Shown here piece by piece: positions 2,018 through 15,692 of a stretch of 28,489 bases of DNA. The stretch lies in IMG/VR virus record IMGVR_UViG_3300032323_003295, positions 1-28,489 of that record; one strand, given 5' to 3'. The notes beneath the pieces are model-generated. The model saw only the letters and a program-made list of their open reading frames with translations, did no database searches and was not told where the DNA came from. Source of the DNA: a virus (taxonomy: Duplodnaviria; Heunggongvirae; Uroviricota; Caudoviricetes). The position numbers and the translations under genes are program-made. Numbering within the stretch: the first letter of the stretch is position 1; every line of letters begins with the position of its first letter.

Positions 2018-2027
2018 TAATATATAA
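2018..2027 (+). promoter_or_regulatory. Putative late promoter motif TAATATATAA
   Basis: Recurring motif, 5 nt before ATG 2033. Confidence 0.55.
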
Positions 2028-2032
2028 GTTAT

Positions 2033-2758
2033 ATGACAAGAAGTGAATTTTTAGAAAGGGCTCATAACCAACATGGTTACAAATACAAATACATAGATTT
2101 ATCAGATAAAATTATTTTATCTGATAAAATTATTATTGAGTATAATAATGTGAAATATGAACAAAGAGTTTCTAAACACTTAATGGGTAAATGTCCAGAG
2201 AAAAGTACACCAACAAGAACTACAGAACAATTTATAAGTGAATCTAAAGAGGTTTGGGGTAATAAATATGATTATACATTAACTGAATATAAAGGAGCCT
2301 TAATTGATGTTAAAATCATCTATGATGGTATAGTTTATTTACAAAGACCAACTTCACACTTAAAAGGAATGGCACCAGAGTTTAGAAGAACAGAAGAATC
2401 TATTATCAATGATGAAATGAAAAAAATGGATTTATTTGGTGAAACTGAAATACATAACTTTTTAAGAAAATATAAAATTGTATCTAAAGAGAAACATAAA
2501 TTAGATGAGATAGTATTTGATTTTTATTTACCTAATCTTAGAGTTTGTATAGAGTTTGATGGTAGACAACATTTTGAACCAATTGAAAAATTTGGTGGTG
2601 TTACTACTTTAGAACGTATTAAATTAAATGATAAAGTAAAGAATGAATATTGTGAAGAACATTATATTGAACTAATAAGAATTAAATATGATAAGATAGA
2701 TGATATTTATAGAATATTATGGGATAGTTTAGCACATAAAATAAAAAAGACCAATTAA
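2033..2758 (+). CDS. Putative homing-type endonuclease: two N-terminal DNA-binding repeats plus Vsr/DUF559-like PD-(D/E)xK nuclease domain
   Basis: Repeats T-x-x-E/Q-F-x4-A/S...G-x-KY-x-Y...Q-R-x-x-x-HL-x-G. C-terminal FDFYLP...IEFDGRQHF...FGG...DKVKNEYC...LIRIKY. Confidence 0.75.
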   Translation: MTRSEFLERAHNQHGYKYKYIDLSDKIILSDKIIIEYNNVKYEQRVSKHLMGKCPEKSTPTRTTEQFISESKEVWGNKYDYTLTEYKGALIDVKIIYDGIVYLQRPTSHLKGMAPEFRRTEESIINDEMKKMDLFGETEIHNFLRKYKIVSKEKHKLDEIVFDFYLPNLRVCIEFDGRQHFEPIEKFGGVTTLERIKLNDKVKNEYCEEHYIELIRIKYDKIDDIYRILWDSLAHKIKKTN

Positions 2759-12561: not shown

Positions 12562-12948
12562 TTAATAGTTTTTATATATTGGTTCCAAATATGGTAATGG
12601 TTTTTTTAAGTACCAGTGTACTAATGCTCTGTGATTCCCTTCTACTCCAACTGATGGATAATCTAAACCTCTTTCTTGAATATCTTTAATAAGATATTGA
12701 ACATAAGGTTCTTCAATAATATCTTCAATCTCATTTCCAAAATGTTTAGTAACATATTCTTCAATTTCATCTACTGGTAACAACTTAAACTTCCACTGAT
12801 AATCTTCTGGTTGTTCATCACCATATTCATCAAACTGAATATCTATATCAGATTGTACTTCTTCTGGTAAATCATCATACTGATAAGTTTTACCTACTTC
12901 AAAGTCAAACTTATTAGTAAACTTCTCAAAAGTTTTAACATATTTCAT
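12562..12948 (-). CDS. Protein with capsid-targeting-like N-terminus and ParB/sulfiredoxin-like motif
   Basis: Starts MKYVKTFEKF. LIKDIQERGLDYPSVGVEGNHRAL resembles the ParB-N L..SI...G...P....DGxHR pattern. Confidence 0.6.
   Translation of the reverse strand: MKYVKTFEKFTNKFDFEVGKTYQYDDLPEEVQSDIDIQFDEYGDEQPEDYQWKFKLLPVDEIEEYVTKHFGNEIEDIIEEPYVQYLIKDIQERGLDYPSVGVEGNHRALVHWYLKKPLPYLEPIYKNY
12572..12581 (-). promoter_or_regulatory. Possible late promoter motif CAATATATAA inside the end of the upstream gene
   Basis: Core AATATATA 12 nt before ATG 12559. Also explained by codons PIYK. Confidence 0.35.
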
Positions 12949-12952
12949 AAAG

Positions 12953-12962
12953 GTATATATAA
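12953..12962 (-). promoter_or_regulatory. Putative late promoter motif TTATATATAC
   Basis: 4 nt before ATG 12948. Confidence 0.55.
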
Positions 12963-12990: not shown

Positions 12991-13012
12991 ATATAGCTGT
13001 TATTATTTTTAA

Positions 13013-13990
13013 TTATATTTTAGAAAGCAATTCTTCTTTCTTTGTTGTAAACTCTTCTTCTGTTAATATTCCTACTTTGTGAAGTTCACCAAGTTTTTCT
13101 AAAAGAACAATACTATCAATCTTTTCTTGGGTTAGAGATATTGTAGTAGTTTTTTTTATTTCTTTTGTTTCAACTGGTTTTCTACTATCTGGTAGTAATT
13201 GAACTATAGTTGATGCAATGTAATAATTATCAAAGTCCATATCAACTGTTTCAAACTTTTGTTTAGATTTTGAACCTTTTTCTACTCTACCAGTTTCAAT
13301 ACTTAATGATTTCTCACTTGAGAAACTAGTTTGTGTAAAACTATTACTAATAGGCATAGAATCAATTGTACTTGAATAGTATGCATTATTTGTTGATTTA
13401 AGATTTGTTAAATCAATTGCCCCTGTTGAACAATAGACATTTCCAGTATTTGTAGTTGTAGTTGCAATTGAACCACCTATTGTTGTATTACAATTAGTTG
13501 TTGTAATTCCATTACCATAATAAACTGTATAAGGATTTGTTGTACCCCAAGGATAAGTAGGATAAACCCAGTAAGGATATGTTCTACCAGTTAGAATACG
13601 ATTAAACTTATTGCTCCAGTTTTCTAATGTAACAACAGATTCTCTATAGAAGAAAACTTCTAATAAACCATTTTTTGCAATTGCATTTGCTACTTCTGTA
13701 GTGTCTTCAACTTCATAAGTATTGAAAATGAATTTCTTTTTATCATCAATAAAACAATCTAAATAAAATCTTTGACCTGGATTTAATACCAGACCTGTTT
13801 GTGAAATTGATTTACCATTTAATTTGATGTCTGCTAGTATGCAGTCTTGAAGTGGATTGAAAAGTTCTATTACAAATTCTTCTTTATCTTGAAGATAAAC
13901 TTTTCCTTTTTTGATAGATTTTCTTCCTCTATCTTTTGAGTTAACTACCCACGCACTTGGTGTAGTAGTTGTTTTGACTTGTTTTGCCAT
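13013..13990 (-). CDS. Uncharacterised protein: N-terminal beta-rich domain, low-complexity T/Y/P linker, C-terminal SHOCT domain
   Basis: C-terminus LLEKLGELHKVGILTEEEFTTKKEELL fits the SHOCT consensus. N-terminal YLQDKEEFVIELFNP...LNG...GLVLNPGQRFYL. Confidence 0.8.
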   Translation of the reverse strand: MAKQVKTTTTPSAWVVNSKDRGRKSIKKGKVYLQDKEEFVIELFNPLQDCILADIKLNGKSISQTGLVLNPGQRFYLDCFIDDKKKFIFNTYEVEDTTEVANAIAKNGLLEVFFYRESVVTLENWSNKFNRILTGRTYPYWVYPTYPWGTTNPYTVYYGNGITTTNCNTTIGGSIATTTTNTGNVYCSTGAIDLTNLKSTNNAYYSSTIDSMPISNSFTQTSFSSEKSLSIETGRVEKGSKSKQKFETVDMDFDNYYIASTIVQLLPDSRKPVETKEIKKTTTISLTQEKIDSIVLLEKLGELHKVGILTEEEFTTKKEELLSKI

Positions 13991-14010
13991 TTTGTTTTTT
14001 TAATTTTTGG

Positions 14011-14070
14011 ATCCATATCTTTGATTCTTTTCAAAATCTCAAAGGCATCCTATTGATACCCGACATGAAT
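14011..14070 (-). ncRNA. Candidate structured cis-regulatory RNA (three-way junction) in a 5' UTR
   Basis: AUUCAUGUC-G-GGUAUC[AAUAG]GAUGCC-UUUGA..GAAA..UCAAA-GAUAUGGAU. 9-bp P1, 6-bp P2 and a P3 that can close a GAAA tetraloop. G-U pairs form only on the minus strand. Confidence 0.6.
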
Positions 14071-14088
14071 TATATAACAGCTATAATT

Positions 14089-14098
14089 TTATATATTA
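14089..14098 (-). promoter_or_regulatory. Putative late promoter motif TAATATATAA
   Basis: Recurring motif, 98 nt before ATG 13990. Confidence 0.55.
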
Positions 14099-14114
14099 GA
14101 TTTTTATTCTTTTG

Positions 14115-14146
14115 TTTGGAAAAAATAATAATTTGTATTATCTTTG
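14115..14146 (+). promoter_or_regulatory. Bacteroidota primary-sigma promoter (early)
   Basis: TTTG (14115-14118)-N20-TATCTTTG (14139-14146). 18 nt before ATG 14165. Confidence 0.75.
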
Positions 14147-14164
14147 TTAAAATAAATCTAAATA

Positions 14165-15445
14165 ATGACAAAATCTACACAATTCATACCAGAAGTTTTC
14201 ATTGAACTTACAAAGAATACATATCCTCATGGTAGTGAGAATATTATTGCAGATAAGATGTTCAAACTTGGTTTATTTCCAGAGGGAATAGATATGGATG
14301 AGCATGGTAATTACTTTTGTAAAATTGGTGAGTCAAGAACAATCTTTGCTTCTCACCTTGATACAGTTTCTAAAGTTCATGAACCAGTCAATCATGTACT
14401 TGATGGATTTATGATTAAAACAGATGGTACTACAACATTAGGTGCAGATGATAAAGCAGGTGTTACTATACTTACTTGGATGATGAAAAATAAAATTCCA
14501 GGTTTATACTACTTTTTTATTGGTGAAGAATGTGGTTGTATTGGTTCAAGTGCTGCTGCAAAATCTGGTGACTTCAAAAATTATGATAGAATAATTTCAT
14601 TTGATAGAAGAGCAACAACTTCAATTATTACACACCAATCTTGGTCAAGATGTTGTTCAGATGAATTTGCAGATGCATTTTGTAATGAATTAAACAAATC
14701 AGGTCTTTCTTATGTAAAAGATGATGGTGGAGTTTATACTGACTCTGCTGAGTTTGTTGATATTATTCCTGAATGCACCAATGTATCTGTTGGATATTAC
14801 AAAGAACATACTTTCAATGAAAGTCAAGATATAGAACATTTAGTAAAGTTAGCAAATGCTTGTCTAAAAGTTGATTGGGAAAACTTACCAACTAAAAGAG
14901 ATCCAAATGTTTATGAAGCAAAAGAATACAAAACTTCAAAATGGGGTGGTATTTATAGTGGTAGTAGATTTGATGAATGGGATGATGAAGATGTTGATTG
15001 GCATGGTTCAAAAAGAAGTGTTGGTACTTATCCAGTAACAGGTACAGGTTGGAGTAGAACTGGTGGTGTTACTAAAACAAGAGATTATGATTACTATGAA
15101 GATTGGTTAGATGAAGAAGATGAGGATGGTAATTATAAACACTATACAGATAGAAATATATTAGCAGATGATTTCTTTGAAAAACCAAAGAAAACAAGAA
15201 GAGGTAGTAAAAAGTCTAAAACTTATTTTGATAATGGAGGTAAGCTAATTGAGCTTGATAGTGAATTTGGTGTAAAACATTATGATTGGATAATGACTAA
15301 ATTTTCAAGTAACAAACTAAATAAAGAAGAGCTTGAAATTGTCAGAGAACAATACTTAGATATGGAGAATGACTATGATAGATACTTCTATGAGAATTTA
15401 GTGGATGAACTATTAGGTGATGATGAATATCACTTTTTTACATAA
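14165..15445 (+). CDS. M28/M20-clan zinc peptidase with long charged C-terminal extension
   Basis: SHLDTV, LGADDKAGV, GEECGCIGS, SFDRR, YTDS, EHTFNE zinc-ligand pattern. Confidence 0.85.
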   Translation: MTKSTQFIPEVFIELTKNTYPHGSENIIADKMFKLGLFPEGIDMDEHGNYFCKIGESRTIFASHLDTVSKVHEPVNHVLDGFMIKTDGTTTLGADDKAGVTILTWMMKNKIPGLYYFFIGEECGCIGSSAAAKSGDFKNYDRIISFDRRATTSIITHQSWSRCCSDEFADAFCNELNKSGLSYVKDDGGVYTDSAEFVDIIPECTNVSVGYYKEHTFNESQDIEHLVKLANACLKVDWENLPTKRDPNVYEAKEYKTSKWGGIYSGSRFDEWDDEDVDWHGSKRSVGTYPVTGTGWSRTGGVTKTRDYDYYEDWLDEEDEDGNYKHYTDRNILADDFFEKPKKTRRGSKKSKTYFDNGGKLIELDSEFGVKHYDWIMTKFSSNKLNKEELEIVREQYLDMENDYDRYFYENLVDELLGDDEYHFFT

Positions 15446-15472: not shown

Positions 15473-15679
15473 TAATTTATCTATTATATCAGATGATTTA
15501 ATTGTTTCATCTGGAGCATTTTTTATTTCTGATTGACTAATGTTATGACTTACTTTATATTTTGTCTTAGAAATCTTCTCTACTATCTTACATGGTGTAA
15601 TCATATTGTTGTACCAGTATTCTATAAGAACAATATCACCAACATTATAAAATGACTTAAACTCTAATATAAACTTCAT
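15458..15679 (-). CDS. Small SH3/Tudor-like protein with capsid-targeting-like N-terminus
   Basis: MKFILEFKSF-YNVGDIVLIEYW...CKIVEK...YKVSH...ETIKSSDII. Confidence 0.65.
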   Translation of the reverse strand: MKFILEFKSFYNVGDIVLIEYWYNNMITPCKIVEKISKTKYKVSHNISQSEIKNAPDETIKSSDIIDKLKNPS

Positions 15680-15682
15680 AAA

Positions 15683-15692
15683 CTATATATTA
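15683..15692 (-). promoter_or_regulatory. Putative late promoter motif TAATATATAG
   Basis: 3 nt before ATG 15679, overlapping the phoH stop. Confidence 0.55.

Follow-up and report, generated by a model that had tools for sequence, protein, structure and literature searches.

Dozens of huge-phage genomes keep, just upstream of a single late gene, a 60-nt RNA folded into a three-way junction, and we describe it here as a previously uncatalogued family of cis-acting RNAs. As structured mRNA leaders its members belong to a well-known type; what sets the family apart is its phage host range, together with its coupling to a helix that joins the two ends of the message. The junction very probably controls its one mRNA. 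To our knowledge, structured regulatory RNAs have seldom been described in huge phages, or in hosts whose translation starts without Shine-Dalgarno sequences. The strong covariation and the tie to one conserved late gene make this RNA a tractable entry to post-transcriptional control in uncultivated megaphages, where it may also lead to an RNA-protein pair not seen before or to a type of mRNA closed end to end.

The window, i.e. the whole stretch of 28,489 nucleotides analysed here, is a fragment of a very large phage, from a record of 92 kb that is estimated to be 16% complete. Among named relatives, uncultured phages of 635-642 kb stand closest to it, and its genes include those for PhoH, a UvsX-like recombinase, a peptidase, a NUDIX hydrolase, a 1917-aa protein and tail-fibre-like proteins. 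No Shine-Dalgarno sequence precedes any ORF in the window, and promoters of the Bacteroidota type (TTTG...TAnnTTTG) occur in it. Both features point to a Bacteroidota-like host, and the huge phages that bear the motif probably infect Bacteroidota.

Fold and surroundings of the junction

The element is the reverse complement of positions 14011-14070, the RNA reading from 14070 to 14011. The following features make up the junction and its transcript:

14011..14070, minus strand: three-way-junction RNA, from RNAfold, covariance models R1 and R2, and covariation
14070-14062 / 14019-14011, minus strand: P1
14061, minus strand: J1/2
14060-14055 / 14049-14044, minus strand: P2, with its loop at 14054-14050
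14043-14039, minus strand: J2/3
14038-14033 / 14028-14023, minus strand: P3, with its GAAA loop at 14032-14029
14022-14020, minus strand: J3/1
14089..14097, minus strand: late-promoter-like box AATATATAA, conserved upstream of the motif in homologous loci, a putative promoter
13991..14010, minus strand: A-rich unstructured spacer without Shine-Dalgarno sequence, 19-24 nt in almost all loci
13013..13990, minus strand: presumably regulated ORF of 325 aa, single copy per genome
12964..12990, minus strand: intrinsic terminator hairpin followed by a T run, conserved in homologous loci

On the sense strand, RNAfold returned the three-way junction as both the minimum free energy and the centroid structure, at -18.1 kcal/mol (z -3.95), a value equalled by 1 of 200 dinucleotide shuffles, whereas the plus strand was without a stable fold (-5.4 kcal/mol, z 0.06). 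The element scores 87.6 bits with covariance model R1 and 85.8 bits with R2. Two of the stems are exactly as an earlier note on this DNA had described them from the letters: P1 (AUUCAUGUC/GAUAUGGAU) has 9 bp including 2 G·U pairs, and P2 (GGUAUC/GAUGCC) has 6 bp including 1 G·U, with the loop AAUAG. For P3, the stem closed by GAAA stands, but the proposed register UUUGA/UCAAA does not: covariation gives GAUUUU/AGAAUC, based on G37:C56 and A38:U55, and leaves UUUGA and AAA as unpaired junction strands. Among 59 distinct sequences, pair 38:55 shows 5 compensatory changes and is never broken. The outer register UUUGA/UCAAA was rejected, its pair 36:55 being broken in precisely the 5 sequences changed at 55 and its pair 32:59 being unpaired in 21 of the 59.

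The leader of the ORF (13990-13013) is about 95 nt long. A WATATATAW box lies 12-34 nt before 14 of the 28 ORF starts in the window, and here it lies 98 nt before the ATG at 13990, which gives this gene an unusually long leader; the leaders of other late genes in the window measure 30 nt or less. As proposed at the outset, the element ends 20 nt before the ATG and leaves the A-rich initiation region free: the spacer is unstructured in all loci looked at, and the start codon is never sequestered. There is no terminator between the junction and the ATG, the only one lying after the ORF. A candidate pairing of the leader UGUUC with GAAUA just before the AUG was discarded, since its duplex (-5.7 vs -4.3 in shuffles) is barely better than chance and is superseded by the far stronger pairing of the two arms described below. 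Elsewhere in the window, several genes start 3-6 nt after a WATATATAW box (12948-12962(-), 2019-2033(+), 15679-15690(-) and 22955+), so that their late mRNAs are probably leaderless or nearly leaderless.

Covariation, distribution and comparison with known RNAs

Is this fold kept among homologous genes? Homologues of the 325-aa protein were taken from viral contigs and from metagenomes (the metagenome loci being among the matches listed), and compensatory changes are visible in the motif across their upstream regions. With a covariance model built from 12 sequences and a cut-off of E<1e-4, we obtained at least 69 matches, equal to 59 distinct sequences, directly upstream of the homologous genes, all on the gene's strand and ending about 20 nt before its ATG. 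As initially remarked, the G·U pairs function on the sense strand only. In the alignment of 59 distinct rows, 97.7% of cells pair and 16 of 21 pairs show double-sided changes; none of 500 shuffles reached any of these pairing measures, and slid-partner controls pair at only 31-51%. Although this alignment was fitted to the covariance model, its top mutual-information column pairs are the helix pairs, and a mutual-information search for pseudoknots or loop contacts gave none beyond the helices.

A second, independent alignment comprised 18 leaders of distant homologues (35-50% identity), with coordinates taken from single-sequence folding. From these, MAFFT and RNAalifold arrived at the architecture of the first alignment, with 96.1% paired and compensatory changes at 17 of 20 pairs. 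Because the distant leaders share this architecture in different sequence, the family comprises at least two sequence classes of one shape. Covariation across homologues, the test that had been set for the fold, was found in both classes and, with the RNAfold structures, bears out the three-way junction at 14011-14070. The 60-nt fold is confirmed, and it is more extensive than first described.

Across the family, P1 has 9-10 bp, its inner three pairs (G·U, U:A, C:G) being invariant or nearly so, and J1/2 is one nucleotide long. P2, of 6 bp, is free to vary in its stem sequence and its loop, and so is the outer part of P1. J2/3 spans about 5 nt (varying NYNGA) and ends in GA, the last A being invariant; P3 has 6 bp with a near-invariant U·G and usually a GAAA loop, and J3/1 is AAA or a related purine-rich triplet (AAA / GAU). 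Specifically, G9·U62, U10:A61 and A36 are found in 59/59 sequences and U42·G51 in 57/59, and both the P1 G·U and the P3 U·G are also present in the second sequence class. That these positions are held while P2 and the outer P1 vary points to a constraint beyond the need for pairing.

The element is single in the window and in its 92-kb record, and each of five genomes of 385-642 kb holds one strong motif match and one copy of the gene. Any further match in the window or the loci was at chance level, with 19 bits or less. The motif is widespread and was found in lake, marine and sludge metagenomes. A degenerate pattern search of viruses gave mostly chance matches, and of 22 sequences that fitted the pattern in 185,579 prokaryote genomes the covariance model confirmed none, so that this route offers no clue to the host. 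The expectation of a new motif is in keeping with our comparisons: Rfam 15 (4227 models) had no match in the window at the gathering threshold, two chance-level matches at E<=10 over 13950-14170, both away from the element, and no match at E<=0.1 on the leader in 18 diverse loci, and we found no equivalent RNA described in the literature searched. Two other matches lie upstream of distant homologues: in L247 (97-158 and 184-989) a freshwater-1 RNA match (RF02979) reaches 70.5 bits against a gathering score of 72, beside four tRNA genes, and L239:730-920 matches a group I intron (RF00028, 57.3 bits).

Many aptamers are built as a three-way junction whose joining strands are conserved, as in purine, TPP and THF riboswitches. 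The phage element, which sits in a 5' UTR, might likewise bind a small molecule at its junction and alter translation, and in its size and its P1 closing two hairpins it resembles the purine riboswitch (RF00167; ~60-70 nt). We consider this very unlikely. The RNA accompanies one non-metabolic gene per genome, its junction strands are short and poorly conserved, with only some 3-5 conserved unpaired positions across the two classes, and no Rfam aptamer matches it. A riboswitch would combine many conserved unpaired nucleotides with an expression platform over a terminator or start site; here there is no terminator or start-site-sequestering alternative, and P1 ends 20 nt before the ATG. For the purine riboswitch in particular, which has a pocket of conserved J1/2, J2/3 and J3/1 strands and kissing P2-P3 loops, there is no covariance-model match, and the P2 loop is variable and shows no covariation with the P3 loop.

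The three stems around a junction, with GUC next to it at the end of P1, also recall a self-cleaving ribozyme, whether hammerhead-like or of a new class. This reading is scarcely credible: the hammerhead set of CUGANGA and GAAA core strands with a cleavage-site triplet UH was not found, J1/2 is a single nucleotide, J2/3 UUUGA and J3/1 AAA both vary, and no Rfam ribozyme model matches at E<=10. The element is thus neither a hammerhead nor a purine riboswitch, as had been surmised from its signatures. It also lacks the features of a phi29-type pRNA, a stand-alone three-way junction of 117-174 nt with inter-molecular loop pairing, as it is 60 nt long, continuous with the mRNA and without an Rfam match.

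A helix between the two ends of the mRNA

The junction had been described as a stand-alone unit. It is real as such, but in most loci it directly abuts a co-varying helix that closes the 5' end on the 3' end, formed in the window by two arms:

14074..14085, minus strand: 5' arm of the closing helix, UAUAGCUGUUAU, a perfect complement of 12992-13003, at the putative transcript start
12992..13003, minus strand: 3' arm of the closing helix, AUAACAGCUAUA, separated by 9 nt from the preceding stop codon and by 1 nt from the terminator that follows

In the 92-kb record, these two are the only exact copies of the 12-nt arm sequence. In homologous loci the 5' arm ends 0-2 nt before P1, and the 3' arm, immediately ahead of the terminator, begins 8-13 nt past the stop codon. 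Of 74 homologous loci (L001-L253), about 50-60 have arms that co-vary, with 39 distinct 5'-arm sequences matched by complementary 3' arms; versions that change together include UAGCUGUUCG/CGAACAGCUA, UGCUGUUACAC/GUGUAACAGCA, UUAUAGCUGAUUA/UAAUCAGCUAUAA and UAUCUGUUCAUA/UAUGAACAGAUA. Class 1 has closing helices of 10-16 bp; in some class-2 loci they reach about 24 bp (-37 kcal/mol).

Messages closed by 5'-3' pairing are known from the hok mRNA of plasmid R1, with its fbi and tac elements, and from the 5'UTR-3'UTR pairing of S. aureus icaR. As in these, a 3' segment just past the stop codon is complementary to the extreme 5' leader, and the phage helix is a co-varying long-range helix of the hok fbi/tac kind. 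Unlike in hok and icaR, the start region of the phage mRNA stays open and the junction has no counterpart there; selection on the phage arms may act at the RNA or at the DNA level, G·U and A·C combinations on the closing helix numbering 50 vs 53.

Would such a closed message bring its ends into functional contact? With the end-to-end helix stacked on P1, the stop codon, about 10 nt from the helix, would come to lie beside the start codon, about 20 nt from P1. We speculate that the junction could be the hub of a closed-loop mRNA of bacterial type in which terminating ribosomes are handed back to the start site, although we rate this as unlikely. If true, it would be a base-paired analogue of eukaryotic mRNA circularisation, in huge phages over-producing one late protein.

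Stacked on P1, the closing helix could also yield a long, almost unbroken duplex as a substrate for RNase III or a phage nuclease, whose cut would excise or mature the mRNA in the manner of rRNA processing stalks. The length of the helix in both classes and its abutment on P1 would suit such a processing signal, which we nevertheless hold to be quite unlikely: with its own promoter-like box and terminator the message needs no excision, and a subgroup (L189-like, L012 and L199) keeps the junction while the closing helix is absent. That the junction is kept without the helix indicates that it has a role of its own.

Possible roles of the junction

Our preferred reading, held tentatively and at just under even confidence, is that the junction is a gene-specific leader element recognised by a macromolecule, be it the protein that the gene encodes, some other protein of phage or host, or the 30S platform. 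The fixed position, the open A-rich spacer, the 1:1 link to the gene and the constraint beyond pairing together suggest a post-transcriptional element that is read by its shape and a few bases, and the invariant wobble pairs (P1 G·U, P3 U·G) and junction A suggest specific recognition. The junction would then act on its single mRNA as a shaped platform that borders the ribosome-binding site on its upstream side. The G·U-U:A-C:G stack of P1, the U·G of P3 and the junction strands ..GA and AAA would be the parts that the macromolecule reads, and recognition, together with the closing helix stacked on P1, would govern how the mRNA is translated and how long it lasts. Against this reading, the start codon is nowhere sequestered, which leaves no simple on/off mechanism in view.

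Autogenous translational operators offer the closest model. Examples are the leader of ribosomal protein S15, which in Geobacillus and Thermus takes the form of a three-way junction, and the phage T4 gp32 and RegA operators. The phage element shares with them a gene-specific structured leader just upstream of the ribosome-binding site, conserved wobbles beside a three-way junction and a 1:1 relation of RNA and gene; it differs in that its gene encodes a phage protein without known RNA-binding domain, and not a ribosomal one, and in that the Rfam models do not match. An autogenous protein-binding leader is a candidate class, to which the single-copy 1:1 link and the invariant wobbles lend indirect support.

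The N-domain of the product counts against recognition by a macromolecule. The 325-aa protein consists of an Ig-like N-domain, a Thr/Asn/Ser-rich low-complexity linker, a conserved middle segment and a C-terminal SHOCT domain. Its N-terminal 135 residues are modelled as an Ig-like beta-sandwich (pLDDT 90), whereas the full-length AlphaFold model is poor (pLDDT 38). The N-domain is generic: structure searches gave Ig-like sandwiches at Z 6.5 or less, Foldseek gave matches at E>0.009 only, BFVD gave unnamed viral proteins only, and neither sequence nor structure comparison gave an RNA-binding relative. Searches of Pfam, PDB and PHROG found no function for the protein, whose family is large and viral (2364 relatives; 1189 representative clusters for the N-domain). 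Many relatives carry, upstream and in the same direction, a gene that ends in a double CxxC zinc-ribbon (…CPNCG…FCPxCG…), about 60 nt upstream of the promoter box in loci L006, L008, L010, L011, L040, L132 and L138; it is not paralogous to the N-domain.

Further points weigh against macromolecular recognition. The position of the junction is explicable by a purely structural role, and the invariant wobbles could serve tertiary packing of the RNA instead of a protein. Such a structural role seems possible, though rather doubtful: as a passive module, the junction would bury or abut the 5' end, stabilise the closing helix by stacking and keep the A-rich initiation region from pairing with the leader, raising mRNA stability and translation with no dedicated ligand. 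The 5' arm ending 0-2 nt before P1 and the always unstructured spacer fit this, and in loci without the closing helix (L199, L012, L189) the promoter box is nearer, so that P1 would lie near the 5' end. 5'-terminal stem-loops stabilise bacterial mRNAs, for example in the E. coli ompA leader, which likewise places a structure at or next to the 5' end before an open initiation region. However, a single hairpin would suffice for this purpose, and a spacer needs no invariant G·U and U·G, junction A or conserved GAAA-type P3 loop; unlike the ompA stem-loop, the phage element is a junction with invariant non-Watson-Crick features, joined in most loci by the end-to-end helix.

Of the earlier proposal of a cis-regulatory motif in the 5' UTR (a protein-binding operator, thermosensor or riboswitch), the new, conserved and structured sense-strand RNA stands, backed by covariation and the lack of an Rfam match. 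The evidence leans to recognition by a protein or the ribosome, or to a structural role; the riboswitch option is disfavoured on the grounds given above, and nothing supports a thermosensor.

Could the conserved element instead act as DNA, as a homing-endonuclease target, a recombination site or an opposite-strand promoter? L069, L002 and L014 have homing-endonuclease genes within the leader or adjacent to it, and positions 13991-14023(+), the opposite strand of the spacer, the 3' strand of P1 and J3/1, fit the full Bacteroidota promoter pattern (TTTG-N21-TATCTTTG, the latter matching TAnnTTTG). This promoter match is probably due to chance, as other clades lack the TTTG half and the upstream gene is co-directional in most loci. 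Moreover, compensatory changes preserve pairing, and the invariant G·U would be A·C on the other strand, which does not fold. Such strand-specific covariation largely refutes a DNA-level role, which we judge highly improbable.

The homing-endonuclease genes, of GIY-YIG type, are found in or beside the leader at L069:3760-4670 and L002:2180-2950 and upstream of the gene in L014, L169 and L219. In L069 the insert lies between junction and gene and separates them by about 900 nt, so that strict proximity of the motif to the ATG is not always kept, which also counts against recognition of the junction by a macromolecule. In L002 the endonuclease gene is flanked by two diverged junction-like copies, and the first 9 codons of the gene are replaced; to judge from the sequence, this arrangement suggests homing into conserved DNA with co-conversion.
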